A stretch of 64,000 bases of DNA from a virus. The position numbers were made by a program, and so were the translations under genes. The stretch spans positions 1-64,000 of IMG/VR virus record IMGVR_UViG_3300036766_000184. One strand, given 5' to 3'. A model generated the notes under the pieces. The model was not told the DNA's origin. It made no database searches and saw only the letters and a list, made by a program, of their open reading frames with translations. Positions 4,667 through 57,869 of this stretch are shown here, one piece after another (within the stretch, counting starts at the first letter, position 1; every line of letters starts with the position of its first letter).

Positions 4667-4722
4667 CGTTGCCCGGCGGGCAGTGATTCCGCTCCCGACC
4701 CTTGACCCAGGAGGAGCCTGAG

Positions 4723-21438: not shown

Positions 21439-21456
21439 GCGCGTGATGGTAAGTCG

Positions 21457-21473
21457 TGCTAATGTGAACTCAC
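21457..21473 (+). promoter_or_regulatory. Extended -10 promoter overlapping operator GTGAACTCAC
   Basis: TGCTAATGTGAACTCAC directly before the helicase ATG. Confidence 0.55.
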
Positions 21474-23224: not shown

Positions 23225-24093
23225 GGTGTCTCGCGGAGGTTCATGGGGATAGGTTTGCGGCGTATCACGGAGACGCGGTTGATGTAGTGGCCCAACTACC
23301 TGACGAGTCTATCGGACTGTCGTGCTATAGCCCGCCCTTCTCGAATCTGTTCCTCTACTCCGACAGCGCCGCCGACATGGGCAACTCCGGGAGCGATGCG
23401 GAATTCCTTGAGCACTACGGCTACCTGCTCCGCGAGCTGTACCGCGTGACGAAACCGGGCCGGATCTCGGCCGTTCACATCTCCGACGTGCCGTTGCAGA
23501 AGTGGCGCGACGGCGTGATCGGCATCAAGGACTTGTCCGGGTCGGTCATCCGAGCCCACGAAGAAGCGGGCTGGATTCTCCACTCCCGCATCACGATCTG
23601 GAAATCCCCCGTCGTGGAAATGACGCGGACCAAGGCCCTCGGGCTGCTCTACAAGCAACTACAGAAGGACTCGTGCCGTTCGCGCACAGGGATGGCCGAC
23701 TACCTACTCGTATTCCGAAAAGACGGCGAGAACCCGGAGCCGGTCCGCCAGACCCCGGAGTCGTTCCCGCTCTCCCAATGGCAGGAGTGGGCGTCGCCGG
23801 TGTGGATGACGGTCGATCAAACGCGCGTGCTGAATGTGCGGGCTGCGCGCGAGGCGAACGATGAGCGCCACCTCTGCCCGCTCCAGCTCGACGTGATTGA
23901 CCGCGCGCTAATCCTGTGGAGCAACCCCGGCGATACCGTGGTGTCGCCATTCATGGGCATCGGCTCCGAAGGCGTGTGCGCGCTGAGGCTCGGTCGCCGC
24001 TTCATTGGTGTGGAGCTGAAAGAGTCGTACTTCGCGCAAGGCAGCGGCTATCTGAACGCGGAAGATCGACAGATGGAACTGACGACCCTCTAG
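23221..24093 (+). CDS. N4/N6 amino-DNA methyltransferase
   Basis: YSPPF catalytic motif; HLCPLQLD; VSPFMGIGSEG SAM-binding motif. Confidence 0.9.
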   Translation: MRCLAEVHGDRFAAYHGDAVDVVAQLPDESIGLSCYSPPFSNLFLYSDSAADMGNSGSDAEFLEHYGYLLRELYRVTKPGRISAVHISDVPLQKWRDGVIGIKDLSGSVIRAHEEAGWILHSRITIWKSPVVEMTRTKALGLLYKQLQKDSCRSRTGMADYLLVFRKDGENPEPVRQTPESFPLSQWQEWASPVWMTVDQTRVLNVRAAREANDERHLCPLQLDVIDRALILWSNPGDTVVSPFMGIGSEGVCALRLGRRFIGVELKESYFAQGSGYLNAEDRQMELTTL

Positions 24094-25811: not shown

Positions 25812-26855
25812 ATGAAGACCCTCACCCATCAGCTCCAGGCGGCCTACGAGGCCCTCGGCCTGCCCATCATCATGGGTGGGACGGACACCGAAGTCCTCAC
25901 GGGCGACGCCGTCACCGTCAAGCGGTGGGCGAGTCGTCTCTGGGTCGAGATGCCCCGGTCGATCTACTGGGCGAAGTTCATGAAGACCAACGACATGAAC
26001 TCGATCATCGAGGTCAAGGAAGACCTGGTCGGCCAGCCCGGAGATCAGATCACCTTCACGCTCCTGCGCAAGCTGACGGGCGCCGGCGTGTCGGGTGACA
26101 ACACGATGGAAGGCAGCGAAGAGGCGATGGTGCCGTATTCCGACACCGTGGTCCTCGATCAGGTCAGGAACGCCGTCCGGCTCAAGGGCAAGCTCTCGGA
26201 GCGCCGCACCGCATGGTCGCAGCGCAACGCGGCCAAGACCATCCTCCAGACGTGGATGGCCGAGACGATCGACGACGACATCTTCACCCAGTTCGACAGC
26301 TCCCCGTCGACCGCGCTCTACGGCGGCTCCGCGACCGCGACGGCCAACATCACGACCTCCGACAAGGTGACCCCGAGTCTGTTCAACCGGGCGGTCGCCA
26401 AGTCCCGCAAGTCCATCCCGAAGATCTGGCCGGTGCGCCTGAACGGCAAGGACCTGTTCGTCTCGGTCCTGCACACGGATGTCGCGTACGACCTGGAGCA
26501 GGACTCGACCTGGCAGGCGTTCCAGCGTGACGCGGCGATGCGCGGGGACGACAACCCCATCTTCACCGGCATGAACGGCATGATCGGCGGCGTCATCATC
26601 CACTCGCACGAGAAGGTGCCGATCTCGACCACGTACGGCGCGGGCGGCAATCTGACCGGCGCGGCCAACTTCTTCCTCGGGAGACAGGCGGGACTGTTCG
26701 CTTGGGGTGAGCGTCCCAAGTGGTGGGAAAAGGAATTCGATTACGGGAACGCGACTGGATTTTGCATCGGGGCTACCTGGGACTTCACAAAGGCAGTGTT
26801 TAACAGCGTGGATCACGCTTTCATCAGTCTTCGTTCGTATAGAACTTCCGTCTAG
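25812..26855 (+). CDS. Major capsid protein (N4-gp56/DUF4043-like)
   Basis: DLVGQPGDQITFTL...GVSGDNTMEGSEE...LDQVRNAV; NPIFTG; EKEFDYGN. Confidence 0.9.
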   Translation: MKTLTHQLQAAYEALGLPIIMGGTDTEVLTGDAVTVKRWASRLWVEMPRSIYWAKFMKTNDMNSIIEVKEDLVGQPGDQITFTLLRKLTGAGVSGDNTMEGSEEAMVPYSDTVVLDQVRNAVRLKGKLSERRTAWSQRNAAKTILQTWMAETIDDDIFTQFDSSPSTALYGGSATATANITTSDKVTPSLFNRAVAKSRKSIPKIWPVRLNGKDLFVSVLHTDVAYDLEQDSTWQAFQRDAAMRGDDNPIFTGMNGMIGGVIIHSHEKVPISTTYGAGGNLTGAANFFLGRQAGLFAWGERPKWWEKEFDYGNATGFCIGATWDFTKAVFNSVDHAFISLRSYRTSV

Positions 26856-36481: not shown

Positions 36482-39400
36482 ATGGCCGTCACCATCCGCG
36501 ACATCGACGCGCTCTTCGACGAAGAGCCGAAGAAAGACAGCGCGGCCTCAGCGCCCGCCACAACCCCGGCAGCACTCGCACCGCCCATAACGACGGTCGG
36601 GGACATTGACAAGCTCTTCGCCGAGTCGCCCGACGATTCAGCATCGACCTTCCCCGCGAGCACGCCGGAGATCAGGCAGGCCGAACTCGACCGGAACCTC
36701 CGCGACATCAAGGCCGGAAATGTCCCGCCGACCATCCAGGCCCCGATCGCCGCGGTCGATCCTGCGACGGGTGTCCCGCTCGACATGCCATCCCCGACAC
36801 CACCCGTGACATCGGGCGAACCCGGCATCCTCACGCGCCTCGGTCGTGCCGCGCGCAACGTCATCATGGGCACGCCAGCCGCCGCCCAGCCCGCGACACG
36901 TGATGGCTCCGGGGGCGTCATCGAGCCGCCGCCGAGTCAGGCTGAGGTGCGCGCGACCGCGCCGGGTGGAGGGCCGTTGGTCACACCACCTCCGGCGACA
37001 CCTGCGGTCACTACGCCGATCGTCTCAGCGTCTACGGTGCCGGCGCCTCCTGCCCAGCGCTCATCCACGCAGCCGGTGTTCACACCACCCGCACCCGTGA
37101 CGCCGGAGAATCCTCTTCCCGAGTGGGCGGTCGAGCGCAATAAGATCACGCCGACCCCATCCAGCGCTCCCGTCATCAACTCGGTCAGGGACCTCGCGCC
37201 TCATGTCGCCGATCTTGTCGCGCCGCCGATCAATGCACGTCCCGCTATCGAGGATGCTGGTCAGCAACTCGACGCCTTCAGGGCTCGACTTGACCAGGAG
37301 CATACGGCCCTTGTGGCGGAGCGGTCTGCGCTGAATGCTGCGCGCGCGAGCCTTGAGTCGCGCCTCGGGCAATCACGAGCCCCAGGAGCACGAGCGGCCA
37401 TCGAGGCTGAGGTCGCCAGCTACAACGAGCGCGAGGGGGTATTCAGCCAGCGCAGGGGGGCCTTCGGAATTGCCGCCGAGAGTTTCAACGCTCGCGCGGA
37501 TAGGCTCAGGGCGCTGGACAAGGACGAGTCGTCGCGTGGCGGGATCGTTGAGCGTGGGACGCGCGCCGCCGTTGAAGCGCAGCGCAGCGGCATCAGTCGA
37601 GCAGCGCAAGCCGTCACCTCGCTGGGCGAAATCCCCTTGTACGCGGGGCCGGGCTCAACGAGCGAGCGGGTCAATGTCCCCAATATCGTCTGGCAAGCCT
37701 CCCTCAATCTCGCCAACGGGCTGTTGCAGGCCGGCGCAGCACCAGCCATTGGCGTTGGAGCGGCGGGCCGGGCGGCCCTTGAAAAGGCAGATCCAGAACT
37801 CGCGAGCACGACGCTTGTCGGCGACGACGCGACGGCGCGTGGCATCCGACTCGGATTGATGCCGACAGAAATCCCCGTGGATCGCACCCCCGAGGAACAC
37901 GCCGCCCTTGGTGCGCCGATCACCGTCGGGGAAGCCGTCGAGATCCTCGGTGCCCTCGGCACGATCATGGGTATCGGGCGCATCGCGTCGAGCAACACGC
38001 GCTACGTGATTAACTGGGGTCGGCCTGGCCCGAGGTTCGGTCGCATTGAGCCGATGAAGGCCCTGCCACCAGCGCCACCCGAGGCGCTCTCAGGCGTGGT
38101 CGCTCGCCCTGAGCCGGTCGGTCCATCTGGATCAGCCCCCACCATCGACCTGACCGTGACACTCGGCGACATCTCGTCTGCCCGCGCGGGCAAGGCGAAT
38201 CTTGCTGAGTCACTGGCGGATGCAGCGGTCAGCCGACTCAAACCGCTCCCCGCGGAATGGGATGCCGGTCGCCGTGTCTTCACGCTCACGGAAGACATCC
38301 CCGGCCATGCCCGCGGTGATGTCGTCAGCGCAACACAGGCCGCAGCGGAGGGCTATGACCCGTTGCGCCTTGCCGCGCGGACCAGCGCGACGCCGACCAC
38401 TCGGCCGGTCGCTACAGCGGCGCGTCCTGAGCCGATCCTCATCGAGTCCGAGCCAGCGGCGGCTGGGTCGGGGCCGCTTGCGCCGGCCGCAGAGGCAGCG
38501 AAGGCTCGGCTCGCGCAACGGGCACCGACGCCACCGTTCGGGCCATCAGAACCACTCGCGTCCACGGCCCCCGTCACCACCGAGGACATCGACGCGCTCT
38601 TCGTACCGCCCGCCAGAAACGAGCCGGAAACGACCCCCGAGTCGGCCGATCTCAAGCCCGCGCCATCGTTGACATCGCCGGGAAATCAACGGGGCGCCAT
38701 GACTCCGCTCACTCCCGAATCGGTGGCCGCCGCGCTGGAGGATGCGAACGGCAACTACATCACGGCTGCGGAGGCGCTCGCCGGGAGCGACAACCTCCTG
38801 AGCGTCCTGAACGCGGCGAATCAGGCCCGGAAACTCTCGCCCGAGTTCAACGACGCGATGGGCAACCGGCCCCGCACGGGCTCGATGCTCAAGGTGGAAC
38901 GGGACCGGCTCGCGCAAGAAGACCGCGGCGGATGGGACCTCAACAACGACAACGACCTGATCGCCTTCGTGAAGAGTAAGGGGGGTATCCGACCGGACCC
39001 CGGCGGGGACCTCTCCGAGAAATGGGAGGCGATCCCGAAGGAACTGCGGAGCAAGACCAAGGGGCTCACGCCGTCGCAGATGGCGGAAGTCGTCAACGAA
39101 TCCCTCGGACGCGAGCGCAACACGAATGTCATCAACGACGCGGAGATCCTGCGCCGCTTGTCGAAGTCGACGGTGCGCGGCGGAGCGCGCGGCCAGCGTG
39201 AAGAGGTTGACCGTGCGCAGGCCGAGCAGGAACGTCAGGCCGCCGATGCCCACGCGCGCTTCATGGACATGCCGGAAGCCGAACAGATCGCCGCGCTTCG
39301 TGATATGACCGGGGCCTCGGAGGCGGATGCGCGAGCGCTTCTCAAGGCCCGACAGGATGCCGCGAGGCCCGTCGAGTTCCTGTCCGACAAAGACGAACCG

Positions 39401-42400
39401 ACCGGCGAGAAGGGCGCGCTCGACAGGGCGCTCCTCGAAGGCTTCCTGGCAGGACCGGAACGGGAGCCGCGCGAGATCATCCGTGAGGTGCTCGATCAGG
39501 TCGGCGGCCACGAGGCGGTCGCCAAGGGGATGTTCGGCGGCGATATAGGCGAACTCGACGCCTTCGTGCGCCGTGTCCATGCGGAGGCGGTGGAGTCGAG
39601 CAAGGCGATGGAGCCGAGAGCGCCCTATGGTGGTCGCGGCACCTCCTTGCCCGCGCGGGCAATGTTTCGCGGCGTCAAGGCTGGCCGAGATCCTCACGCC
39701 ATCGAGGGCACCATCGGCGGCACGACATTCTCGCCTGACGAAAAGGTGGCGCGCGCCTACGCGGGCGAAGACGGTCGTGTTGTGCGCGAGAACCTCGGAT
39801 TCAAGAATCTGCTCGCGGCCAAGAACTGGATGGAGGCTAAGCGCGCACTCGAACTCCCCGCATCGGCGACCATGCCAGAGCTGATCCGGGCGGCGAGTGA
39901 CGCTGGGCACGACGGTCTCGCGTTTCAGGGCGCGCACGGGCAGGAGTACATCAAGATCCCATCCAAGGGACCAGAGCCCAAGACCGAGAAGACCCCACTC
40001 GGCGATCAGGTCTTGGTCCCCGACACCCCCAAGCGCTCGATCCCCACCGGGAAAGCCAAGGCCCGCGTCGAGCAGCGCCCCTTGGACTCGACGCCGCTGT
40101 TCGGACAGGACAAAGCGGAACGAGATCGGAATTCCGACGACGCGCAGGGGATGCTTCTTGAGGACCGCGCGCCGTTCCAGGCACAGGAGAAAGCGGCCAA
40201 AGCTCAGGAGAAGGCCGCTGAGGCGCTCACGAAAGCTGCTGGCGCGATCAAGGATGCGGCCGACGAAGTGCGGGCGGCCGTTCCCGAGGCCCCGAAGCCC
40301 GCGCCGGTCACGTGGGGCGGCTGGCAGGAGCGCTTCAACAAGGAGCCGCTGCCGCTCTGGTCTCTGACCCAAGACATCCCCGGCCACCCGAAAGGCTCTA
40401 CGGTCGGCCCCCAGGCGCTCCAGAAGGCGGGATTCGAGGTCCCCGAGCCCCCGGAAGCGGCCCCGACCGGCGCATCGCCGTACAAGTACTCAAGCGTAGA
40501 GATCCGACTGCCGGCCGGGATCGGAGACGCGGTGCGCCGGTTCGCGCAGACGATCCCGCAAGATCAGTTGGCGCCGAAGGGTGTCGAGGCGGTGTCTCAC
40601 GTAACCGTTCGTTATGGCATCCAAAGCTCAGAGCCCGACCGGATTAAGGACGCGCTCAAGGATCAGGGCCCCGTCGAGATCACGCTCGGCACGGTCAAGA
40701 GCTTCCCGGACACCGGCGACGGAGAAGTCCTCTACGTGGAGGCCCAGGGCCCGGCGGTCGACGCGCTCCACGAGCACCTGACGGACGCGCTCGTGACCGT
40801 CGACACCCAGAAGACGTTCAAACCTCACGTCACCCTCGCCTATTTGAAGAAGGGCGAAGCCAAGGCCCACGTCGGCGACACCAGTTTCGTCGGCCGGACC
40901 TTCACGGCCTCCGAGGTCGTGTTCTCGCCGCGCGATGGAGCGGAGCCTACGGTACTGGCCTTGCCCGGGCGGGCAGTGGAGCCAGCCACCGAAGCGCCGC
41001 GTGTGTCAGACACACCATCCGGTGTGCTAGACACACAGCCGCCGACCGCCGTCAACGAACCAGTCGCCCCCTACACCACGGAGCCCGCCCCGGCTTTCTT
41101 CTCCGCACTCCGTGACGCAGCCGACAAGCGTCTGCCCGCGCGGGCCAGCGCCGAGCAGATCATGGCGACCATCCGGGCGACCCCAGGCGTCAAGGCCGAC
41201 GAGATCACCTGGACCTACCTCCCCGAGTGGTTGGCCGAACAGAAAGGCCCGATCGCCAAGGCGGACGTGCTGGCGTATCTGGACGACTACGGCGTCAAGG
41301 TGCGGGAAAGCCTGCGCGGGCAGGGAGCGGGGAGCGATCCGGGCCAAGAGGCATTCCGTCGAGCGTTCGAGCCCGCCGCGCCCGGCGAGTACGCGCGCAC
41401 ATTCCGCGACCTGATCGAGCCGCTTGGCTACCACCCGGAGCATGCGTCCTCGGGGCCGGGCTATCTCGTCATCCGCGCCGCGCCCATCGTCAATCCGGAA
41501 GTGGGCCTGGACGAATTGAACCGACGGATGGATCTGCTCGAAGCCGAGCGCGAGCCTGCCTATCGGGCCGCACACCGTCTCGGCATCATCGACACGCGCA
41601 GTGAGGCTGAGGACATGGAACTCGCCCGCCTCACACAGACCTTGACGATCATCGACGGACAGGAACAAGAGATCGACGACCAGATTCAAGAGGTCGTTGA
41701 CCGGGATCGTCCGCGCTACTTCACCATCCGCGCTGAGGGCCGCGTACTGCTCAACGACGACGAGGGGGCCGCCGACTTCGATGAGGCTGTCGTGAATGCG
41801 TGGCGTGACCAGGAGGATCGCGCAGGACGCAGTACCACACCGAACGCCAATCTCTCGCCCGCCGAGTACGAAGGCTACAAGGCCGTCAGAGGCGGTGAGA
41901 GCTACCGCGAGCTACTGTTCCTCTATGAGAGGCCGCCAACAGAGCTTGACAAAGAGATTCGTGCGCTCTCGCGGGGCAGGGGGCGACCGGGCTCAGGCCA
42001 TGACGATGCTTTCTCGATACAACCGGAAGACCAGCCACGCTTGGACGCGCTGCTCAGCCGTCGTGTCGGGCTACCCCGCCATGTTTTCCGGCCCCCTCAC
42101 TTCCGCAACGCCGAGGACATGATTGCGCATGTCCGATTCGATGTCCGCACCGACGCCGACGGCCGGCGCGGACTCCTGATCCAAGAGGTGCAGGACGACC
42201 TCGACAACCAGATCCGCAAGCGACAGGACAACTTGAAGTCGATGGAGCGCGCATTGCCGGATGTCGCAGAAGGAACGCCAGCGCGACCCGGACTAGAAGG
42301 AAACATCGCGGACGCGAAGACCGAGATCGCCCGCCTCGAAGCCCTTCTCCCCTTCCGGGGCGGCAAGTCGAACGAGTTGGTGATGAAGCGCGTCCTGCGT

Positions 42401-45400
42401 TTTGCTTCGGAACAGGGCTACGACTTCGTGGGGTTGGCGACGGGCGCGCAGCAGGCGGAATTGTACAACCTCTCGACGCACGTCAAGCGGATCATGCTCT
42501 ACGACGCCAGCGGCGGCATCAGCGTGCCCAAAGATGGACCGTTCGTAAGCGGGATGTTCGTGGCGACCCCGCGAGATCGCGGACAACAGATTGAGCGCCG
42601 CATTGACTTGGCGCAAGACCCAGAAGCGCTGAACGATCTCGTCGGCCCTGAGATGGCGGCGCGACTCCTGGCGCGTCCGTCTCGCGTGGGCAACTGGGCT
42701 GGACTCGGCGCGCGTATCCGTTCGCTGGAAGATCTGGACCTCGAAATGCCGAGTAAGCAAGCGCAAGGCAAGAAGAAGACCTACGACGAGATCCTCCTCG
42801 CCGTCCTGAACAAGCTGGCGAAGCCGTGGGGACAGAAGGTGGAGGATCGGTACCTGAAGGCTGATGCGGGATCTCGGACGATGGCGAATGATGACGCTGG
42901 TTCCGCAGCGGCGATCGGCGCCGCGCCCATCCACGCTATCGCCATCACCCCCGAGATGCGCGAGGCCCTCCTGCGTCACGGCTTCCCGCTCTTCGAGGAC
43001 CGCGCGGCCTACGGGGCACTCCCCGCTGAGGCCAAGGTCGCCGCTGACGCTCTCAACGCGCAGGACATCCGCAACAACCCCAACTTTACAAGGTGGTTCG
43101 GAGCCTCGAAGGTGGTGGACGAGAAGGGCGCCCCGAAGGTCGCCTACCGCGGCGACAACCGCGCGGATCGCCTCGACCGTCTCCGCAAGGCTCGCGCGTC
43201 CAGCGCGCATGGGTTCTTCTTCACCGAAGACCCGGCCATCGCGTCGAGCTACGCCACGGGGAAGGTCGACCGGAACGCGGTCGACGACGTGATGGAGGGC
43301 GAGAACTTCCGCAACTACTTCCGATTCACGCGCCCCGGCGTGCGCGGCACGATCAACCTGCACGATCTCTGGTATCACCTGAGTCGAGCCGAGCAAGCGC
43401 GCGTCGAGGACGTGGTACGCAAGTCGGACTACACGGAAGAGCAGCCGGACGGCACGGTCGGCCCGCGCTACTGGGACTTCAGCGGCGAGCGTAGTGTGCG
43501 CGATCAGGCTGGATGGGATTACGAGATTCGTGACAACCGAGGCAACGTGCTCGACGCAGCGGCCTCGACCTACTTGGGCGGCGCGATTCTGCACGGCGAT
43601 GGTGACGAGGCGCTCTTCCTCGATCTCCTGAAAGAGGCCGGGATCGAGGGCGAGTACGTCGACCCGTGGGCGGAAGCCCCCGCCGTCACACCGGTCTATC
43701 TTGCGATCCAGACTCCGCTCGATACGGCGGCAATCCCACCGGCCGTGGTCGACCGACTCCGAGCCGTCGCGCGCCGCTCACGCCGTCAGCCGAAAGAGGG
43801 CTACGGCGACCCGTGGAACATGGCGGCCATCACGCCGAAGGTGTGGATCAGCGAGCTTGAAGACAACCTGACGAAGGGCACGACGACCGCGTGGACCTCG
43901 ATCCCGAAAGAGATCGTGCGCGCGCTCCAAGGGCTCGGCTACGACGGGATCAAGGACACGGGCGGGAAGATGGGCGGCCAGCCCCACGCGGTCTGGATTG
44001 CGTTCGAGCCGACGCAGGTCAAGAGCGCCATCGGGAATCGGGGCACGTTCGATCCGTCGAGCCCGTCACTGGTCCGAGAAGAAGCGACGCCCTACGCCGA
44101 GTTGCCCGCCCGGGCAGAGCCAGCTCCCGCGTTCTACTCGACGCTCCTCCAAGCCGCCGAGAAGCGCCTGATGCCGAAGATGTCCCGCGCTCAGGTCCTC
44201 GGGGTACTCGGGTCCACGCCGGGCGTCAAGAAGATCGAGATCCACTGGACCGGCCTTGAGGCGTGGCTCGCCGGCCAGCCCGAGGTCGGGATCAAGAAGA
44301 CGGACGTGCTCGACTTCATCCGGGCGAATCAGGTCCGGGTGGCGATCAGGGAGTTGAGCGAGGCGACCTCGGAGACCGAGCAGCGACGGATCGAAGCAGA
44401 GTCCGGCCTCGATCTCTCCGAAGAATACGGAGGCATGGGCAGCTTCGACTCCGCGTGGGACGAGGTGCGCGCGCTCGACCCAGATCCTGAGTACGTGAAG
44501 GAGATGCGCGCCGAAGACCCGGACTGGGAGCCGAGCGACGAGGAGATCGAATACCGCTCGTCTCATCCGGCCGGGTACGAGGTGACCGGGAATCGTGAGA
44601 GCGGTTTCTCGGTCTGGGTCCCTGATGCGTCTAAGGGCGTCGGGCGCAGGGGCGTGCGCGATGACGGCGGCGTCCAGTTCGATCGCCTCGACGCCGCACA
44701 AGAAGCCGCTGGCTTAGACTACTTCAACTGGCTTGAGAGAGCGGCTGACGATGGGGCCGCTCCTCGTCACGGCGAACACGTCGAGCCCGGCGGTCTCCCC
44801 GGCACCTATCGGGAGCGGCTGTTCGTGTGGCCGCCGGAGACGCTGGAGCCAGCGCCGACATCTCGAAGCCTGTGGCGCGAGAAAGCAGAGCAGGTCGCAG
44901 GCGAGAACGGCATCGAGCAGCCGCACCTGCTCAGCGATGCCGCTCTTCGAGAGCGTGTGGGCGAGATGGCCGCACAGGAGGACGTGAGCGCTGTTGATCG
45001 GCCTCGGCGCGACGACACGCTGTACGAGCCCCCATCTTCCCACTTCGATCAGCCCAACCTGATCGCCCACGCGCGCCTGGACGACGGGACGCTTGTCGAT
45101 GGGACGCCGGTGCTGCGGATGCAGGAAGCGCAATCCGACTGGCGGCACGCCGTCCTTTCCGAAGGCGAGCGCACCCCCGAGCCGCCGCCCGTCCTGACGG
45201 AGTTGCCGGAGGGGTACAAGGTGGAGTCGGCTCCGAGTCAGGTGGTCGAGCAGGGTGCCGGGAAGTTCCGCTATTCACCCGTCACGAAGGTCCTGTCCCA
45301 TGTAGGGCCAGAGGGTCAGGAGTGGCGTCGCGACGGTGTCGAGCCGATCAACCTGGGCCTTTTCATGGACGAGTTCACGGCCGGCAAGCTATTCGACCGC

Positions 45401-48400
45401 CTCGAAGCCATCGGCGTCCTCAAGAAAACCCTCAGAAAGAGGTCCTGGGTCGTCCGTCAGCCTGACGGGGTCGTGATGGTCAGAGCCGAGGCGACGGCGA
45501 GTCGCGCCGAAGCGGTCAAGCGCGCCGTGAGCCAACTCAACCGCGACCGCCACAACGCCTGGTCCCGCGCCGTCCCGCCCTTCCCCTGGTTGAAGAACTG
45601 GCTGGAACTGGTCATGAAGGACGGGATCAGCGAGGCGGCCCGGACGGGCAAGCAGTGGTTCGTCTGGACGACAGGCAAGCAGCAGGCCGAGCGGTGGAGC
45701 CAGAAGGTCACCGAGAACATCGCGGCGGTGCGGTATCACAAGACGGGGCACTCGGACGGCCCCGCCGATTGGGTTCTCGACGGGTGGAGCGCCAAGCGAT
45801 CACAGAAGCGCGAGGGCGAATGGCGCGACCCCGATGTCGTCCAGCGCGTCACCCCCGATGAGTTGCCGAACTACGTCGGCAAGGAACTCGCCCAGAAGTT
45901 GATCGCGGCGGACGGGGAGGTGCTGACCGGCCAGGATCTGACGTTCGGAGGTTCTGAGTTTCGCGCCATCTACGACACCATGGCCCTCTCTTTCGCGCGC
46001 GCGTTCGCCAAGCCGTTCAAGTCGCGGGTGGAGGATGTGCAGGTCAACACGGCGCCGACTGGCAACCCGCGCGTGGGCATGACCATGCACGGCATCTCGA
46101 TCACGCCTGAGATGGTGTCCACCGTCTTGACCCACGGCCTGCCGATCATGGAGCCGCGCGCCCCGTTTGCCGCCGTCCCTGAACCACGCTATCCTCTCCG
46201 CGATGGAGCCGACCGGACGAAGAGCTACGCGCTCTTCCACGAGGCGGCGCGTGAGCAGTTGGATCTGTTTGGAGGGAACCGTGGGGAGCCAGGGAAGCAA
46301 GCGGAAACTCAGGCTGTCGAACCGGCGATCCCGGCTGCGCAAGGTGACACCGGAAGAGCTGGAAACGCACGCGCGCCTGTTCGTGCATCCCAGCCCGCCC
46401 TACGGGGATTCGACGCCGGAGCCGGAGTCCGCACTCTCGCCCTTGCGCTTGCCCGCGACCTCGCCAACCTCGGCTACGTCTCCCTCCGCGGCTACCGAGT
46501 AAGCTCCGCCGAAGAACTCGGCCCCCTCGCGCAGATCTGGCGCGATCCGCGCTACGAAACCTTCCGCATCGTCTACGTGGACGACGCGGGCACCATCCTC
46601 GCCCATGAGGCCATGACGTCTCGGAGCGCCGGAGCCGCAGAGGCGTGGAAGCCTGACGACGACGTGGACGACTGGATCGCCACGCGCCGCGTTCGGATGG
46701 CGAAGATGGGCGCGACCGGATACTACCTGCTGCACAACCACCCAACGACGGCCCCGATCCCGTCACGCGAGGATCGCGCGCTCACGACCAGAATCTCGCG
46801 GGCGCTGACTGGGTTCAAAGCACACGTCATCATCGACCACGGGAGCTTCGGCATCCTCCGCCCTGACGGGACTGAGGTCATGCGTCCCGTGACGGCGCAG
46901 CCGGATGCGCGCTACATCCCCGCCGTCCCGCACGACATTCTCGATGTTCAACTGACGAGTCCCCAGGATGTCGTGAGGCTCGGCAAAGCCATCGAGGTCC
47001 GCGACGGTTGGGTCGCGCTGCTCTACCGTGGCGCGGCAGGGCAGATCATTGCGGCTCAAGAAATGCCACGGGCGCTGTTCCTTCACCCGACAGAGGCGAC
47101 CAACTATCTACGCGCCCAAAAGAATAAGTGGGATGCCGACAGCATCTTTGCTTATTCATCCGTGCGCGGCGACGCTGCCGTGATCGCGGCGGCGCAATCC
47201 CTTGTCGACGATGGACGACTTCGCGATGCGTGGGTTGGCGCTCACGGCGCGGAGATTCTCAGCGACCGAGAGCGAGGCGTGCGCGCTAACGAAGATCTCG
47301 CGACCCGTCCTATCGTTCGCTTCGCAGAATCCGGCGCCCCCTACAACGACACGACCGACGAGGATCTCCGCGAGCTGGGCCGGGCCTTCCTGACCGATCC
47401 ACCAGACTACGAATCGTGGGCGGCGCAGATGCGGACACACGTGAGCCCGGCGTACTACGCGCGGCTGGCGAAGACGTATCAGGATCTCACCGCGTCGGCC
47501 TCGGATGTCCAGACGTCGAGCGCGCGCCCGACCGGCGTGCAGAATCCGGCCCAGACCGCCGCGGGCGATCTCAACGCCGCGCGCGGCATCCCACTGCCCG
47601 CCGGGCAAGCCCTCATGGAGCGACTGCACAAGATTCTCGACGTGCCGATCTCCGAGGGGCGCGTCGGTGGCGGGGCCGGGCGTCTCGGGTTCACGCGGCT
47701 CAAGGGCGGGCGTGCCGAGGCCGCTCGGCTCAAGGTCTCCGAGGATCTCTCGACGGCCGCCCACGAGGCCGGACACGTCATCTCGGCGATCGTCTGGGGT
47801 GCCCGCCCCGGCGCGCGCGATGCCTTCTACATGCGCCACTCGCCTGACCTGATGCAGTTGGCTGAGGGGCACGTGACACCGAACCAGGAAGAGGGCTGGG
47901 CCGAGTTCTGGCGGCTCTACTTGCAGAACGCCGACAGCACGCGCGCGATCTACCCGGACCTGACCCGCGACATTGAAGACGCGCTGGCTCGCGAGGATCA
48001 GCCGCTCCTATCCGCACTCCAGCAGTGGGGCGACGACTACCGGGCGTGGCGTGGATCTCGGCCCCGGGACCGGATTCGCAGTCACGTGGTCCGCGAAGTC
48101 GGCAAGACCCGTGACCTCCGCGGCACGCTGCGGCGGACCTACACCAACCTGCTCTGGGAAGGGGCCCCGCTGGACCGCGCGGTCAATACACTCGCGGCTG
48201 GGCACCCGCTGGGGCCCGAGCAGAATGCGAGCCTGCTCAAATCGGTCTTGGCCGGCGCCCCGAAGCTGGCCGAGTACTTCCTCTTCGACAAGAACGGCCA
48301 CGGCGGGACCCTCGACTTCCACACACGCCAGGTGACCGGGCCGTCGCTGGAAGCCGTGCTCAATCCCGTCAAGGCGACCTGGCAGGACTGGTCGGACTAC

Positions 48401-51103
48401 ATGATCGCCCGTCGTCTCCGGGAGTTGATGGGTCGCCCAGACGACAACGGCAAGCGCGCGGCCGGACTCCTGATGCAGGTGCTCGAAATGAGCGCGGCCG
48501 ATGTCCACGGCGAGCTGGCCGCGTGGGAGATCGAGCACCCGGAGTACGAGGCGGTCGCCGCGGCCTTCCAGACCTGGAACAAGAGCCTGCTCAAGTACCT
48601 CGAAGACGCCGGCGTCACGTCAGCCGAGAGCCGGGTCGCCATCGAGGAGGCCAACCAGGACTACTTCCCGTTCCATCGCTTCTTCGCCGACGACGCTGAA
48701 GCTGGCGCGAAGCCGATGGGGGCCGGGGGCGGGGTCGCCAACGTCAGGAGTCCGGTCAAGACCCTCAAGGGGTCGGGCAGGAAGCTCACCGATCCGCTCG
48801 GCTCGGCGGTCAGGAATACCTACGTGATGGTGATGCGGGCCGAGCGCAACGCCGTCCTAGAGGCACTCGTGTCGCTCGCCGAGTCGACGCCGGGCGGCGG
48901 GGCCTTGATCGAGCCGCTCCCGGCCCCACAGACGGGCCAGCAGGTCATGACCGTGGAGGCCATCGCCCAGATCCGGCGCGACCTGGAGCGCAACGGCTTG
49001 CCGACCGTCGCGCTTGACATGCTCGACCCGACCCAGCTCCGCGAGGTGGTCCGCACCTTCCGACCGGATCTGTTCCGGGCGACGCTCCCCGGTGAAATCT
49101 GGGTGCTCAGGAAGGGCAAGCCCGCGCACTACCAGATCCACGACCCGGAGCTGTATGGGGCGCTCGCCAACCTCGACCGGGCCAGCGCGCAGTGGCTCAA
49201 GCACCCGCTGGCTCAGGGTCTCCTGGTTGCGCCGGCTGCCCTTCTGCGCGCCGGCGCAACCCTGTCACCGGAGTTCCTCGGCCGCAACCCCGTGCGCGAC
49301 ACCTTCGCGCGCATCCTGTATACGGCGGCAGCCTCAAAGGTCCCCCTCGTCGGCCCGTACATCGACGCCGGCAAGGCTCTCGACGGCTTCGTCAGGGGGG
49401 TCTTCTCGGCCATCCGACAGGATGCCTGGTATGACGTGTGGAAACGGAGTGGGGCCGCGATCACGGCGCTCTCGTCGCTGGATCAGGAGAGTCTCCAGAA
49501 GCACCTCGATGACGTGCTGGCCGGCCGGGATGGTGTTCGCCTGCCTGGCTACAAGGGCACTCCGATCCGTTTCGGGACGGTCATCCAGACGCCGATTCAG
49601 TTGCTCAGGCTTGTCAGCGAAACCATGGAAGAGGCCAGCCGGATTGCCGAGACGCGCGACGTGCTGCGAGGGCTCGGGGTAACTAACCCCGGACAGGCGA
49701 CCAAGGGGCAACTCCTCGAAGCGGGCGGTGCCGCGCGGGATGTCACCCTCGACTTCAACCGCATGGGCGTGTTCTTCAAGGTCACAGGACTCAACCGAGT
49801 CGCCGCATTCGTCAACCCCTCGTGGCAGTCGTGGGACAAGCTCGCGCGCGAGGCGGGGCTCGGACAGGTGCCAGCCGGCCTCGACCTCGGCGGTGGGGCT
49901 GGCGGCGCCGGCGGTGGCGGGCGCACGCCGCCCGTTGGCGGGGCTGGTCTCCCGCAGGGGCCACAGGGCCGGCGCATCCTCGAATGGCGCGCCCGGAAGA
50001 TGCGCGGGTTCTCCTACCGGATACTCATGCTGATGACCCTGCCCTCACTCCTGCTCTGGTGGTACAACCACCAGGACGCTCGGTGGGTGGAGATCCCCCA
50101 GTGGCAGAAGGACATCTCGTGGATCGTCTTCTCGCGCCGGATCACCAAGGATCAGTGGACGACCATGACCGAAGATGAGCGTGTCGAGGCGATGCGGGAC
50201 GGCATCGTCCGCATCCCGAAGCCCTTCGAGCTGGGCGTCCTGTTCGGCTCGGTCCCGGAACGGATCGCCGAGTGGATCGTCGGCCAGAATCCGAACGCCC
50301 TCAAGTCGATCGGTCAGAGCCTCGCGACCGCGGCGGGCACGTCCATGATCCCGATGCCGACCGTGCTCTGGCCGCTCATCAGCATCGCGATGAACTGGAA
50401 CAACTTCTTCGACCGGCCGGTGGTGTCCAGGGGCCTCCAGGACATCGACCCGGAGTTCCAGAGCGGCCCCGGCACCAGCCGATCGGCCGAGTCGATGGCG
50501 CGCTCGCGCCCGATGGGTTGGCTCTCTCACGGACTCGAAGCCAGCAAGCTCGTTCCGACGTTCCTGACCGAGGCGATCCGGTCCCCGATCCAACTAGAAA
50601 GCCTGATCCAGGGCTACGCGGGGAACCTTGGGCGCATCGGTCTCAACGCGGGAGATCTGGCCCTTAAGGCCCTCGATGCCCACGGGCCGGCCGAGCCCGA
50701 GAAGACGTGGAGCGATGTCCCGGGCATCCGGGGATTCCTGGTCCGCTACCCGTCTGGGAGCGCCACCTCGATTCAGGACTTCTACACGATCTACGCGGAC
50801 GCCCAGAAGGCCGTCAAGACCCTGCAATTCATCGCCAAGAAGAAGCCGCGAGAGGACCCGGAAGCCTACGAGCGCGAGCACGAGTTCGCGCTGCTCGAAT
50901 ACGTCGCCATGCAGGCGACCGCGAAGTCCCTCACGCAGTCCCGTGCCGACTTGCAAGAGATCCGTGAGGACAAGGCGATGGACGCGCAGACCAAGCGCAA
51001 GGAAATGGATCGTGTCACGCTCGGCATGATCGAAGAAGCCAGAGGGGCCGTTGAGGGTCGTCGCACCGCCGAGGCAGCCTACCGAGCGGCCCGCAAGCCG
51101 TAG
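36482..51103 (+). CDS. Giant polyvalent injected protein (4873 aa): ART-like x2, 2H phosphoesterase, duplicated ~600-aa module, RadC-type JAB, zincin, LPD38-like C-terminus
   Basis: ART FRG..FSPDEKVARAY (39660); HVT x2 (40598, 40826); NFTRWFGASKVVDEKG..GFFFT..QVKSAIGNRGTFD (43075-44065); HNHPTTAPIPSRED (46730); HEAGH..EEGWAE (47762); RIPKPFELG (50210). Confidence 0.85.
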   Translation: MAVTIRDIDALFDEEPKKDSAASAPATTPAALAPPITTVGDIDKLFAESPDDSASTFPASTPEIRQAELDRNLRDIKAGNVPPTIQAPIAAVDPATGVPLDMPSPTPPVTSGEPGILTRLGRAARNVIMGTPAAAQPATRDGSGGVIEPPPSQAEVRATAPGGGPLVTPPPATPAVTTPIVSASTVPAPPAQRSSTQPVFTPPAPVTPENPLPEWAVERNKITPTPSSAPVINSVRDLAPHVADLVAPPINARPAIEDAGQQLDAFRARLDQEHTALVAERSALNAARASLESRLGQSRAPGARAAIEAEVASYNEREGVFSQRRGAFGIAAESFNARADRLRALDKDESSRGGIVERGTRAAVEAQRSGISRAAQAVTSLGEIPLYAGPGSTSERVNVPNIVWQASLNLANGLLQAGAAPAIGVGAAGRAALEKADPELASTTLVGDDATARGIRLGLMPTEIPVDRTPEEHAALGAPITVGEAVEILGALGTIMGIGRIASSNTRYVINWGRPGPRFGRIEPMKALPPAPPEALSGVVARPEPVGPSGSAPTIDLTVTLGDISSARAGKANLAESLADAAVSRLKPLPAEWDAGRRVFTLTEDIPGHARGDVVSATQAAAEGYDPLRLAARTSATPTTRPVATAARPEPILIESEPAAAGSGPLAPAAEAAKARLAQRAPTPPFGPSEPLASTAPVTTEDIDALFVPPARNEPETTPESADLKPAPSLTSPGNQRGAMTPLTPESVAAALEDANGNYITAAEALAGSDNLLSVLNAANQARKLSPEFNDAMGNRPRTGSMLKVERDRLAQEDRGGWDLNNDNDLIAFVKSKGGIRPDPGGDLSEKWEAIPKELRSKTKGLTPSQMAEVVNESLGRERNTNVINDAEILRRLSKSTVRGGARGQREEVDRAQAEQERQAADAHARFMDMPEAEQIAALRDMTGASEADARALLKARQDAARPVEFLSDKDEPTGEKGALDRALLEGFLAGPEREPREIIREVLDQVGGHEAVAKGMFGGDIGELDAFVRRVHAEAVESSKAMEPRAPYGGRGTSLPARAMFRGVKAGRDPHAIEGTIGGTTFSPDEKVARAYAGEDGRVVRENLGFKNLLAAKNWMEAKRALELPASATMPELIRAASDAGHDGLAFQGAHGQEYIKIPSKGPEPKTEKTPLGDQVLVPDTPKRSIPTGKAKARVEQRPLDSTPLFGQDKAERDRNSDDAQGMLLEDRAPFQAQEKAAKAQEKAAEALTKAAGAIKDAADEVRAAVPEAPKPAPVTWGGWQERFNKEPLPLWSLTQDIPGHPKGSTVGPQALQKAGFEVPEPPEAAPTGASPYKYSSVEIRLPAGIGDAVRRFAQTIPQDQLAPKGVEAVSHVTVRYGIQSSEPDRIKDALKDQGPVEITLGTVKSFPDTGDGEVLYVEAQGPAVDALHEHLTDALVTVDTQKTFKPHVTLAYLKKGEAKAHVGDTSFVGRTFTASEVVFSPRDGAEPTVLALPGRAVEPATEAPRVSDTPSGVLDTQPPTAVNEPVAPYTTEPAPAFFSALRDAADKRLPARASAEQIMATIRATPGVKADEITWTYLPEWLAEQKGPIAKADVLAYLDDYGVKVRESLRGQGAGSDPGQEAFRRAFEPAAPGEYARTFRDLIEPLGYHPEHASSGPGYLVIRAAPIVNPEVGLDELNRRMDLLEAEREPAYRAAHRLGIIDTRSEAEDMELARLTQTLTIIDGQEQEIDDQIQEVVDRDRPRYFTIRAEGRVLLNDDEGAADFDEAVVNAWRDQEDRAGRSTTPNANLSPAEYEGYKAVRGGESYRELLFLYERPPTELDKEIRALSRGRGRPGSGHDDAFSIQPEDQPRLDALLSRRVGLPRHVFRPPHFRNAEDMIAHVRFDVRTDADGRRGLLIQEVQDDLDNQIRKRQDNLKSMERALPDVAEGTPARPGLEGNIADAKTEIARLEALLPFRGGKSNELVMKRVLRFASEQGYDFVGLATGAQQAELYNLSTHVKRIMLYDASGGISVPKDGPFVSGMFVATPRDRGQQIERRIDLAQDPEALNDLVGPEMAARLLARPSRVGNWAGLGARIRSLEDLDLEMPSKQAQGKKKTYDEILLAVLNKLAKPWGQKVEDRYLKADAGSRTMANDDAGSAAAIGAAPIHAIAITPEMREALLRHGFPLFEDRAAYGALPAEAKVAADALNAQDIRNNPNFTRWFGASKVVDEKGAPKVAYRGDNRADRLDRLRKARASSAHGFFFTEDPAIASSYATGKVDRNAVDDVMEGENFRNYFRFTRPGVRGTINLHDLWYHLSRAEQARVEDVVRKSDYTEEQPDGTVGPRYWDFSGERSVRDQAGWDYEIRDNRGNVLDAAASTYLGGAILHGDGDEALFLDLLKEAGIEGEYVDPWAEAPAVTPVYLAIQTPLDTAAIPPAVVDRLRAVARRSRRQPKEGYGDPWNMAAITPKVWISELEDNLTKGTTTAWTSIPKEIVRALQGLGYDGIKDTGGKMGGQPHAVWIAFEPTQVKSAIGNRGTFDPSSPSLVREEATPYAELPARAEPAPAFYSTLLQAAEKRLMPKMSRAQVLGVLGSTPGVKKIEIHWTGLEAWLAGQPEVGIKKTDVLDFIRANQVRVAIRELSEATSETEQRRIEAESGLDLSEEYGGMGSFDSAWDEVRALDPDPEYVKEMRAEDPDWEPSDEEIEYRSSHPAGYEVTGNRESGFSVWVPDASKGVGRRGVRDDGGVQFDRLDAAQEAAGLDYFNWLERAADDGAAPRHGEHVEPGGLPGTYRERLFVWPPETLEPAPTSRSLWREKAEQVAGENGIEQPHLLSDAALRERVGEMAAQEDVSAVDRPRRDDTLYEPPSSHFDQPNLIAHARLDDGTLVDGTPVLRMQEAQSDWRHAVLSEGERTPEPPPVLTELPEGYKVESAPSQVVEQGAGKFRYSPVTKVLSHVGPEGQEWRRDGVEPINLGLFMDEFTAGKLFDRLEAIGVLKKTLRKRSWVVRQPDGVVMVRAEATASRAEAVKRAVSQLNRDRHNAWSRAVPPFPWLKNWLELVMKDGISEAARTGKQWFVWTTGKQQAERWSQKVTENIAAVRYHKTGHSDGPADWVLDGWSAKRSQKREGEWRDPDVVQRVTPDELPNYVGKELAQKLIAADGEVLTGQDLTFGGSEFRAIYDTMALSFARAFAKPFKSRVEDVQVNTAPTGNPRVGMTMHGISITPEMVSTVLTHGLPIMEPRAPFAAVPEPRYPLRDGADRTKSYALFHEAAREQLDLFGGNRGEPGKQAETQAVEPAIPAAQGDTGRAGNARAPVRASQPALRGFDAGAGVRTLALALARDLANLGYVSLRGYRVSSAEELGPLAQIWRDPRYETFRIVYVDDAGTILAHEAMTSRSAGAAEAWKPDDDVDDWIATRRVRMAKMGATGYYLLHNHPTTAPIPSREDRALTTRISRALTGFKAHVIIDHGSFGILRPDGTEVMRPVTAQPDARYIPAVPHDILDVQLTSPQDVVRLGKAIEVRDGWVALLYRGAAGQIIAAQEMPRALFLHPTEATNYLRAQKNKWDADSIFAYSSVRGDAAVIAAAQSLVDDGRLRDAWVGAHGAEILSDRERGVRANEDLATRPIVRFAESGAPYNDTTDEDLRELGRAFLTDPPDYESWAAQMRTHVSPAYYARLAKTYQDLTASASDVQTSSARPTGVQNPAQTAAGDLNAARGIPLPAGQALMERLHKILDVPISEGRVGGGAGRLGFTRLKGGRAEAARLKVSEDLSTAAHEAGHVISAIVWGARPGARDAFYMRHSPDLMQLAEGHVTPNQEEGWAEFWRLYLQNADSTRAIYPDLTRDIEDALAREDQPLLSALQQWGDDYRAWRGSRPRDRIRSHVVREVGKTRDLRGTLRRTYTNLLWEGAPLDRAVNTLAAGHPLGPEQNASLLKSVLAGAPKLAEYFLFDKNGHGGTLDFHTRQVTGPSLEAVLNPVKATWQDWSDYMIARRLRELMGRPDDNGKRAAGLLMQVLEMSAADVHGELAAWEIEHPEYEAVAAAFQTWNKSLLKYLEDAGVTSAESRVAIEEANQDYFPFHRFFADDAEAGAKPMGAGGGVANVRSPVKTLKGSGRKLTDPLGSAVRNTYVMVMRAERNAVLEALVSLAESTPGGGALIEPLPAPQTGQQVMTVEAIAQIRRDLERNGLPTVALDMLDPTQLREVVRTFRPDLFRATLPGEIWVLRKGKPAHYQIHDPELYGALANLDRASAQWLKHPLAQGLLVAPAALLRAGATLSPEFLGRNPVRDTFARILYTAAASKVPLVGPYIDAGKALDGFVRGVFSAIRQDAWYDVWKRSGAAITALSSLDQESLQKHLDDVLAGRDGVRLPGYKGTPIRFGTVIQTPIQLLRLVSETMEEASRIAETRDVLRGLGVTNPGQATKGQLLEAGGAARDVTLDFNRMGVFFKVTGLNRVAAFVNPSWQSWDKLAREAGLGQVPAGLDLGGGAGGAGGGGRTPPVGGAGLPQGPQGRRILEWRARKMRGFSYRILMLMTLPSLLLWWYNHQDARWVEIPQWQKDISWIVFSRRITKDQWTTMTEDERVEAMRDGIVRIPKPFELGVLFGSVPERIAEWIVGQNPNALKSIGQSLATAAGTSMIPMPTVLWPLISIAMNWNNFFDRPVVSRGLQDIDPEFQSGPGTSRSAESMARSRPMGWLSHGLEASKLVPTFLTEAIRSPIQLESLIQGYAGNLGRIGLNAGDLALKALDAHGPAEPEKTWSDVPGIRGFLVRYPSGSATSIQDFYTIYADAQKAVKTLQFIAKKKPREDPEAYEREHEFALLEYVAMQATAKSLTQSRADLQEIREDKAMDAQTKRKEMDRVTLGMIEEARGAVEGRRTAEAAYRAARKP

Positions 51104-57067: not shown

Positions 57068-57381
57068 GCGCGAAGGACTGGCGGATGGTCGCGCCGTGCG
57101 AGACGTGCCCGTTCTCAGATTCCGAGGGCGGCACGCGCATGCGCCGGTCGCTGCGACCCGGACGCGTGGCGAGCATCAAGCGCGGGCTCCTGCGCGGCGA
57201 CGCGTTCCATTGCCACAAGACGGTCGGACACGACGACGAGGATGAGGCCGTCATCGGGGCCGGCGCCCGACTGTGCGCCGGGGCGTTGGCGTGGCAGAAC
57301 GGACGCGGCGCGTCGTCCAACTATCAGCGCGTCTGCGAATCGCTCGACTACGTCGCGGAGCGGCGAAAGGCGCGCCCGTGA
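57064..57381 (+). CDS. Cys/His conserved phage protein (PCxxCPF...FxCHK...CAGA)
   Basis: Motif pattern. Confidence 0.6.
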   Translation: MSAKDWRMVAPCETCPFSDSEGGTRMRRSLRPGRVASIKRGLLRGDAFHCHKTVGHDDEDEAVIGAGARLCAGALAWQNGRGASSNYQRVCESLDYVAERRKARP

Positions 57382-57869
57382 ACGTGACGCCAGCCGAGTA
57401 CGCCCAATTGCAGGCGCGGGCTCAGTCACCCGTGCGTGAGGGTTGGCGAGACGGCGCGTTGAGCGTTTTTGTCCCCGGCATCCCCTACAACTTCAAGAGC
57501 GGCGGGCAGACGACCCGCGGCGGCTTGATGAAGCATCGTCGGCTCGTGAAGGAATGGCGGGAGCGGACGGCGGATCGCATCTTCGCCGTCATGTCGGAGA
57601 ACGACCTCGGCGAGAAACGCGCACCCTTCCTCGCCTGGAAACAGAGCGACCCGAAGCGCGTGACGTTCACGGTCTACTCGCGCAACGCCTTCGACAGCGA
57701 CGGACGCGAAGTCTGCTGTTCGCCGTCGCGCGATGCGTTGAAGGATATGCACCTCGTGACCGACGACCGCGACTCCGCGGGCAATGTTTTCATCTACGAA
57801 CAGATCACGAGCCGGAAGGCCACGTTCGTTCGCGGCATCGCGATCCGCATCGAACTGAGAAAGGACTGA
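57378..57869 (+). CDS. RusA-like Holliday junction resolvase (divergent)
   Basis: VFVPGIP...FDSDG...RDALKDMHLVTDD. Confidence 0.5.
   Translation: MNVTPAEYAQLQARAQSPVREGWRDGALSVFVPGIPYNFKSGGQTTRGGLMKHRRLVKEWRERTADRIFAVMSENDLGEKRAPFLAWKQSDPKRVTFTVYSRNAFDSDGREVCCSPSRDALKDMHLVTDDRDSAGNVFIYEQITSRKATFVRGIAIRIELRKD

Follow-up and report, generated by a model that had tools for sequence, protein, structure and literature searches.

The window analysed here is a stretch of 64,000 nucleotides (64 kb), positions 1 to 64,000 of the virus record IMGVR_UViG_3300036766_000184, which is 87,863 bp long, has a GC content of about 66% and is rated 83% complete by CheckV. It carries a giant open reading frame (ORF) at 36482..51103 (+ strand), taken from the ORF list with its translation, whose product of 4873 amino acids (aa) we refer to as P0001. 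A short peptide of the form E-x-x-[AT]-[PA]-[YF] recurs seven times in P0001, and we found it to be a real, non-random feature of the junctions between the modules of this protein, conserved at the level of the peptide.

Judged by its domain content, P0001 is a phage-type polyvalent protein in which N-terminal cargo modules are followed by a conserved C-terminal core. Several unrelated effector or enzymatic domains lie on one polypeptide, as in polyvalent proteins, and its Pfam domains (LPD38, ART-PolyVal, 2H superfamily and RadC) all score above their own cutoffs. The cargo part takes up the first ~3600 residues and consists of an orphan N-terminal region, a 2H phosphoesterase, module A, ART-PolyVal, module B and a RadC-JAB module; the C-terminal 900-1100 residues, which comprise the HEAGH region and LPD38, form a core common to many podophages. 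All seven copies of the peptide lie in the cargo part (aa 1044-3621); residues 1-1043 and the C-terminal core have none. All features of P0001 given below are on the + strand.

The first copy, EPRAPY (39611..39628, aa 1044-1049, preceded by KAM), aligns with KEPNV-Y in P0002, the closest homologue of P0001 (identity is 54% within module A and 37% across the N-terminal 1300 residues), and the second, EDRAPF (40160..40177, aa 1227-1232, preceded by MLL), is followed by a stretch rich in Ala, Lys and Glu. The original prediction, made from the sequence alone, had placed a first ART domain, 'ART-1', between these two copies (aa 1050-1226); this was not confirmed, as the stretch had no Pfam match at E <= 1, gave a probability of 0.4% by hhalign against an ART alignment, and shows no more than a brief local resemblance (TTFSPDEKVARAYAG against FFTEDPAIASSYATGK). 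The 2H phosphoesterase follows at 40595..40861 (aa 1372-1460; Pfam 2_5_RNA_ligase2, E = 1.6e-10, 41.7 bits against a cutoff of 27), and the same region matches Acb1 weakly, below cutoff (E = 0.0085). The third copy, EPVAPY (41057..41074, aa 1526-1531, preceded by AVN), stands five residues ahead of the point where module A begins (PAFFSAL); the module itself is delimited at 41075..42994 (aa 1532-2171), and the fourth copy, EDRAAY (42995..43012, aa 2172-2177, preceded by PLF), directly follows its conserved end (G-x-P-L-F). ART-PolyVal (ART-2, PF18760) occupies 43058..44077 (aa ~2193-2532; 52.7 bits against a cutoff of 31.2, best stretch aa 2399-2523) and is 35-40% identical to many stand-alone ARTs. 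Its tail, Q-[IV]-K-S-A-x-G-N-x-G-T-F-D-P-x-x-P-x-[ILM], here ending in GTFDPSSPSL, stops two residues before the fifth copy, EEATPY (44078..44095, aa 2533-2538, preceded by LVR). Module B (44096..46150, aa 2539-3223) leads directly into the sixth copy, EPRAPF (46151..46168, aa 3224-3229, preceded by PIM), which is a paralogue of the fourth, and the seventh, ESGAPY (47327..47344, aa 3616-3621, preceded by RFA), lies at the end of the RadC module.

Modules A and B are paralogues, as tiled BLAST queries of P0001 revealed: the aligned stretches (aa 1514-2181 and 2521-3233) are 28-43% identical and take in the motif on both sides. Neither module has a Pfam match at E <= 1. Module A was matched by phmmer in 49 of the first 172 homologues, and a search of the ESM Atlas with it returned nothing but unnamed clusters, whose 0.84 falls short of the level required; scans of viral contigs with module A and with another homologue, P0174, found nothing. 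A phmmer search of PDB sequences with the ART-2 and RadC segment gave nothing usable, and tblastn of phage records with aa 1000-3700 gave seven weak partial matches.

A regular expression applied to the translated ORF returned exactly the seven copies that had been predicted, with the same coordinates and peptides, starting at aa 1044, 1227, 1526, 2172, 2533, 3224 and 3616 (nt 39611, 40160, 41057, 42995, 44078, 46151 and 47327). From composition 0.66 copies are expected, and none of 2000 residue shuffles reached seven (the maximum, six copies, was seen once), so the expected enrichment over shuffled sequence was found as well. The strict core E..AP[YF] occurs five times against 0.17 expected; AP[YF] by itself is not enriched (5 against 2.3 expected). 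We also noted that six of the seven copies have L (twice), V (twice), I or F two positions before the Glu, and that the seventh has A there (binomial P of about 8e-4 for V, L, I or F in six of seven; V, L, I and F plus M make up 22.9% of the protein). The motif may thus be extended to eight residues, [VLIF]-x-E-x-x-[AT]-[PA]-[YF], of which P0001 has six copies against 0.24 expected. The 18-nt codings of the copies differ by synonymous codons, as had been claimed, and conservation is therefore at the peptide level. A six-frame scan of the window yielded only six further matches to E..[AT][PA][YF]. Among ORFs of at least 100 aa other than P0001 the motif was found in five sporadic cases only, and it is absent from the capsid and portal proteins. 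A fuller form, E-x-R-A-P-[YF], preceded at -2 by a hydrophobic residue, does occur in two other ORFs whose GC content at third codon positions is gene-like (2 against 0.21 expected in six frames of the whole record): MSEQRAPY at 4729-4746, at or next to the N-terminus of ORF 4702-5214 (+; GC content at third codon positions, GC3, 0.85), and LGEKRAPF at 57612-57629 in ORF 57273-57869 (+; GC3 0.79). Neither of these ORFs has a Pfam match above cutoff or a PHROG match.

The claim that the copies fall between modules was assessed with the start and end points of 481 BLAST high-scoring segment pairs from 205 homologues. These pile up close to the motifs, with 15 starts at aa 1525-1550, 164 starts at 2175-2225, 150 ends at 2525-2550 and 38 ends at 3200-3250; the claim is thus upheld by homology for the copies at 1526, 2172, 2533 and 3224, and those at 1044, 1227 and 3616 have too few homologues for a decision. 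A search with aa 2150-3260 matched 11,265 library proteins at E <= 1e-3, and most of the best 150 of these cover mainly aa 2193-2534 (query positions 44-385), which is the ART part. Stand-alone ARTs begin about 16 residues or more after motif 4 (query position ~44), and two natural proteins, P0051 and P0063, terminate 5 and 9 residues past the ART tail. The motif sits right against the hydrophobic end of the module before it, its Glu directly following G-x-P-L-F, L-P-I-M or P-S-L-V-R, and the gap from the motif to the next module ranges from 5 to about 90 residues; the joints are short rather than long, floppy linkers. The modules that the motif follows include non-homologous ones.

The distribution of the motif was examined in a sample of 206 proteins, comprising P0001 and 205 others obtained by three word-index searches and one exhaustive search. 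Recurrence in homologous giant proteins was seen in two of them, both distant homologues. The eight-residue form occurs five times in P0004 (0.19 expected, P = 1.7e-6; four copies against 0.50 by the six-residue expression) and four times in P0116 (0.20 expected, P = 5e-5). The copies in P0004 lie outside Pfam matches, in the gaps between ddrB-ParB, RelA/SpoT, ART and RadC domains, and a sixth variant, VRVQEESSY, follows its RadC module. In P0116, one copy separates LPD1 from ART, and the rest follow ART and RadC; MREEQSPY lies at aa 3025, shortly past the end of the RadC alignment at aa 2934. As the copies in P0004 and P0116 join other domains, the peptide goes with joints and not with one kind of domain. 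At the position of motif 4, P0004 has PLFEKGTPY, and at that of motif 5 SMVAEGEASY; VRVQEESSY of P0004 and RRVGEEPSPY of P0175 align with motif 7. Single or double copies are found at equivalent joints in P0024, P0175 and P0091. A position-specific scoring matrix (PSSM) built from the seven sites showed no enrichment in 172 homologues (12 hits at 12 bits against 21 in shuffles), so the family as a whole does not carry the motif. Six proteins with repeated ART tails (P0008, P0029, P0031, P0084, P0142 and P0154) each have a peptide of their own right after the tail (RL[KR]R[KR], TRRA, L-x-S-[AT], FSGWDE, RFSR and RK-x-N-x-NHD), for which recent tandem duplication is possible.

A closer comparison was possible with L001, a relative of P0004 (52-82% identity) encoded in the IMG/VR record G001, which is 89,082 bp long and rated 100% complete. 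The capsid and portal proteins of G001 are 62% and 44% identical to those of the window, and only five loci in IMG/VR were found to encode capsid proteins at least 50% identical to the window's. P0004 and L001 have five alignable junctions, of which four keep V-x-E-x-x-x-x-Y (RVAEEKAPY/RVAEEEAPY, RVAEREAPY/RVAEKPAEY, GVRETRAAY/GVAEPKAGY and VRVQEESS-Y/VRVQEEREPY); at the fifth, the P-Y is kept and the Glu lost (PLFEKGTPY against PLFSPESPY). The flanks and cassettes differ between the two proteins where the junction peptide persists. Residues 1012-1217 and 1578-2567 of P0004 are absent from L001, and each of these cassettes ends next to a copy of the motif. At L001 13700-14300 we found a hybrid junction, RVAEPKA-LTEGQPLF-SPESPY, where about 1000 residues of P0004 (ART plus a module) are missing; from the sequence, a deletion seems to have run from a junction peptide to a module end.

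The closest homologue, P0002, was found to lack the motif of P0001 and to carry another peptide, E-x-D-R-Y, four times (P = 6e-8 with 0.034 expected; allowing for the two copies that prompted the pattern, the chance of at least two further copies is 6e-4). Two of these lie at equivalent junctions: ESDRY aligns with motif 3, and EGDRY (in PLFQPEGDRY) with motif 4. The expression E.[DQ]RY is absent from P0001, P0004, P0116, P0024, P0175 and P0174. In a scan of a restricted family of patterns, E-x(1-3)-a-b-[YF] (1200 patterns in 206 proteins), E..AP[YF] in P0001 ranked second (adjusted P = 0.0011) and E.DR[YF] in P0002 third (adjusted P = 0.0015); the first-ranked pattern and several more come from words that recur inside repeated domains.

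The genes around P0001 bear on how the protein may be delivered. A gene for a P22-like portal protein (16311-18572, +; Pfam E = 9e-89) and one for the major capsid or head protein (25812-26855, +) lie upstream of the giant ORF on the same strand, so that P0001 shares a virus record and a strand with a virion module. The conserved C-terminal core (48305..51055, aa 3942-4858), which includes LPD38 (50075-50725, aa 4532-4748; Pfam E = 7.5e-30, 104.9 bits) and contains no junction motif, matches proteins in 51 phage records by tblastn, mostly podophages, among them Pelagibacter HTVC034P, Escherichia Pondi and PTXU04, Bacillus Palmer and Vibrio phages. Matches in Vibrio and Shewanella podophages cover aa 3749-4462 and begin just before HEAGH. 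The core has no match in two further records, G002 and G003. In phi24B, gp47 (2811 aa, with LPD38) is abundant in virions and has been proposed to be an ejection protein (bioRxiv 10.64898/2026.04.10.717836), and PTXU04_00025, also with LPD38, is needed for efficient infection (bioRxiv 10.1101/2023.09.18.558157). These data on LPD38 giants are the reason for which we read P0001 as a packaged polyvalent protein; given the position of its gene and the proteomics of phi24B gp47, it is probably packaged in a short-tailed phage particle and injected. The likeness lies in the LPD38-bearing C-terminal core, with PTXU04 matching P0001 aa 4032-4854 at 25% identity; the two known proteins differ in their size (2200-2800 aa), in that the accessible parts of these reports give no junction peptide or processing for them, and in that P0001 has about 3600 extra residues of cargo.

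We propose that the motif is a lineage-specific junction code, and that among the readings considered here it is best explained as a processing site, to which we tentatively assign a probability of about 0.4. One eight-residue junction peptide follows each cargo module. Under this proposal a site-specific endopeptidase would cut it, so that the modules come apart inside the capsid or once ejected; related proteins keep the joints, some of them having changed the peptide. That P0001 is packaged and ejected, that the peptide is cut and by what enzyme are matters that we infer. A recognition signal fits because the motif stands between modules, recurs in P0004 and P0116 and is replaced by a different peptide in P0002. 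This pattern would fit a peptide that selection maintains in the protein and whose reader is able to change its specificity.

As to the enzyme, the original prediction had named the two candidates within P0001 itself, a HEAGH zincin and the JAB domain. HEAGH (47762..47776, aa 3761-3765) is the only HExxH in P0001, and the stretch around it (aa 3622-4530) has no Pfam peptidase family above cutoff. A zincin-like metallopeptidase (MPTase) domain is frequent, though not required, among phage-type polyvalent proteins. P0004, P0024, P0175 and P0002 are without any HExxH, which in the sample is not associated with the motif, and the zincin was rejected on this lack of co-occurrence. The best candidate, and the one we favour as putative cutter, is the embedded RadC-type JAB (JAMM) domain. 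It lies at 46550..46828 (aa 3357-3449; Pfam RadC, 29.3 bits in the whole protein and 35.7 in the segment, cutoff 22.1) and combines the RadC profile match with an upstream Glu (AHEAMTS) and a JAMM motif, H-N-H-P-x6-S-R-E-D (46733-46774, aa 3418-3431; regular expression H.H.{7}S..D; HNHPTTAPIPSRED), which has the form H-x-H-x7-S-x2-D. The suggestion that JAB is the cutter is compatible with the data in that every bearer of the motif has an intact JAMM; the fit is weakened by P0174 and P0018, in which JAMM is intact and the motif missing.

Several points weigh against a cleavage site cut by this domain. Outside P0001, P0004 and P0116, the motif is at background in 203 of the 206 proteins (33 eight-residue copies against 29.8 expected), and a relaxed form, E..[ASTG][PAS][YF], follows only four of 240 ART tails and three of 37 module ends (against 98 of 20,000 random windows). 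This relaxed form also catches words internal to ART domains, E-I-A-S-S-Y and E-x-P-A-S-Y, which do not fit the eight-residue form and were excluded from the test of association with JAMM and HExxH. In that test, all three proteins with at least three copies had JAMM, compared with 22 of the 203 others (P = 0.0016 by Fisher's exact test), an association that is confounded by kinship and that is only a lead; part of the sample was also drawn through the RadC region. The near relatives P0174 (41% identity in RadC) and P0018 have the RadC module and no code. RadC is taken to be a nucleic-acid enzyme by Iyer et al. (Iyer, Burroughs, Anand, de Souza, Aravind 2017, PMC5512222), who also note cases in which the protein stays whole, namely N4 vRNAP, which is packaged unprocessed, ArdC and TraC1. 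G002, a relative of P0004, carries a single canonical copy, RVQEAGAPY, and degenerate versions elsewhere; this copy (aa 2009) stands after RadC, within a stretch that aligns to P0001 aa 3295-3677. It is homology, moreover, that gives the motifs their status as linkers: in a crude profile of composition and disorder (approximate TOP-IDP scale) their flanks fall at unremarkable percentiles and do not appear disordered, a result too rough to count for or against. Four of the seven copies form two paralogous pairs through the duplication that gave modules A and B, and since these modules are paralogous with the flanking motifs aligned, the seven copies amount to about five independent occurrences. 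Finally, the patterns were defined after the sequence had been viewed, and the nominal P values given here overstate their significance.

Some of these points could equally suggest that the motif is an effect of chance or composition in a high-GC protein rich in Ala, Pro and Glu, amplified by internal duplication and by post-hoc fitting of the pattern: two pairs of copies are paralogous, AP[YF] by itself is not enriched, and in leave-one-out scoring the PSSM gives low values at 2533 (1.1 bits) and 3616 (2.4 bits). We consider this highly improbable, given that no shuffle reached seven copies, that the sites coincide with domain boundaries and that P0004 and P0116 are independently enriched against a flat background in 203 other proteins. 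Equally remote, in our estimate, is that the sites are targets of a head-maturation protease of the T4 type, cutting after Glu in hydrophobic-x-Glu. The consensus of the T4 head protease is (L/I)-x-E, and the motif has [VLIF]-x-E in six of its seven copies and A-x-E in the seventh, as such sites would. In T4, gp21 trims gpAlt and the internal proteins IPI-III (PMC9958956), and gp245 of SPN3US cuts after A-x-E (PMC10052503). The systems would be alike in that head-packaged effectors, an ADP-ribosyltransferase among them, are cut back at a short motif that ends in Glu and has a defined residue at -2; they are unlike in that those cuts remove N-terminal propeptides and do not separate modules, and the conserved A-P-Y half of the motif lies outside the known site of that protease. 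P0002, further, has a code without a hydrophobic residue at -2, and the capsid and portal proteins lack the motif. No match to Peptidase_S77 (T4-type), S78 (HK97-type), S49, ClpP or Mu-like_Pro was found at E <= 1 in the 87.9-kb record, nor to S77 or S78 at E <= 1 in the complete relative G001, and the ORFs tested between the portal and capsid genes gave no protease family (DNA methyltransferase, helicase, YkuD or nothing). A T4-like head protease was accordingly rejected, no gene for one having been found.

The other two explanations accept the peptide and differ on what it does. Domain shuffling, offered in the original prediction as an alternative, receives some support, in that cassettes inserted or deleted between relatives have their ends at the motif or beside it. 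The copies might then be seams of inserted, deleted or swapped modules, travelling with the cassettes and having little present function: about 90 residues after EPRAPY of P0001 are missing in P0002, the cassettes of P0004 that are absent from L001 adjoin copies of the motif, the L001 hybrid resembles a deletion scar, and the peptide after the tail is of a different flavour in each ART-rich homologue. Such a legacy of cassette exchange seems to us rather improbable. The differing codons leave no long nucleotide identity for homologous exchange, the modules (GC3 0.72-0.87) show no clear sign of recent import, and between P0004 and L001 the motif persists while neighbouring linker residues have changed, which calls for selection on the peptide. 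The evidence of selection behind the main proposal is shared by the possibility that the peptide is never cut and serves as punctuation, either docking the protein to the capsid interior, the portal or a chaperone, or acting as a hinge, or as a cap that allows adjacent modules to fold or unfold on their own as the chain threads through the tail. We regard this as unlikely but well worth considering. The tight bond of the motif to the hydrophobic end before it (PLF-E, PIM-E and SLVR-E), with a variable distance to the module after it, speaks for such a role, as does the copy at the RadC end, which in P0004, L001 and G002 runs on into a conserved PYGDF(E/D)RL as a structural element would; N4 vRNAP, packaged uncut (PMC5512222), is a precedent. 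An extended motif of eight residues after unrelated folds would, however, be unusual for a structural cap, no partner for docking is known, and a co-evolving reader would account for the change of peptide at equivalent joints in P0002 better than a requirement of the fold would.

Processing of polyvalent proteins by embedded zincin peptidases has been proposed before by Iyer et al. (PMC5512222). The phage-type polyvalent proteins they describe resemble P0001 in having many conflict domains in a chain (ART-PolyVal, 2H, LPD38), a phage virion module and a predicted release by peptidase. They differ from the present case in that the accessible text of that paper names no junction or cleavage motif and favours the zincin, which here is not common to the other bearers of the motif. 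We found no paper that names such a motif in polyvalent proteins, and the supplementary alignments of Iyer et al. could hold one. RadC, too, is listed in the accessible text only for polyvalent proteins of conjugative elements (PMC5512222), in contrast to its presence here in a phage-type protein with LPD38; several other giant proteins of phage contigs also combine RadC and LPD38. The analogy drawn by Iyer et al. with the polyproteins made by RNA viruses of eukaryotes (PMC5512222) holds for distinct domains in one chain, short sites at the joints and an embedded protease, and does not extend to homology of the domains or peptidases; in P0001, moreover, cleavage is only predicted.

Other features of the record deserve mention. 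Two elements besides the junction peptide are repeated in P0001. The first, D-I-D-[AK]-L-F, is found at 36500-36517, 36602-36619 and 38585-38602 (aa 7, 41 and 702), twice at the extreme N-terminus, and could be an N-terminal signal for targeting or packaging; the N-terminus of P0174 has two copies of D-L-D-A-L-D, and the giant ORF of G002 has SLLDEAF and ALVDEAF near its likely start. The second, a small element that contains L-T-x-D-I-P-G-H-x-[KR]-G, occurs at 38240-38359 and 40295-40438 (aa 587-626 and 1272-1319), as well as in P0002 (LWDLTHDIPDHPKGST) and in the giant protein of G002 (LWGLTQDIPGYPKGST), and has no family assignment. Between the portal and capsid genes, a block at 19733-24093 (+) contains an ORF like C5-methyltransferases, one whose C-terminal domain is YkuD (L,D-transpeptidase), one like helicases and an N6/N4 methyltransferase; it looks like an insertion, since the portal and capsid genes of the related phage G001 are only about 1.6 kb apart. 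A transposase gene of the IS605 OrfB/TnpB type (OrfB_IS605, Cas12f1-like TNB and HTH domains) lies at 7627-8829 (+) inside the phage record.

Polyvalent proteins are thought to be a pre-packaged counter-defence kit of phages and plasmids, and that they are taken apart after delivery has been a proposal since 2017, with no site known. The value of the present finding is tempered by the confinement of the motif to few proteins and by cleavage being a proposal; the evidence points away from the zincin and towards the RadC/JAB domain. More speculatively, and with low confidence, the RadC-type JAB domain, which has no known activity, may be the processing peptidase of this class of phage polyvalent protein, reading lineage-specific codes and cutting the injected chain into effectors. 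Tyr and Phe at an N-terminus belong to the bacterial N-degron class. If the speculation is true, a cut just before the invariant Tyr/Phe would place an N-terminus of this class on every released module, and would so limit in time the action of early effectors. In any case, a short junction peptide after unrelated modules delimits these modules, including two large orphan ones, and offers a concrete handle on the processing of polyvalent proteins.

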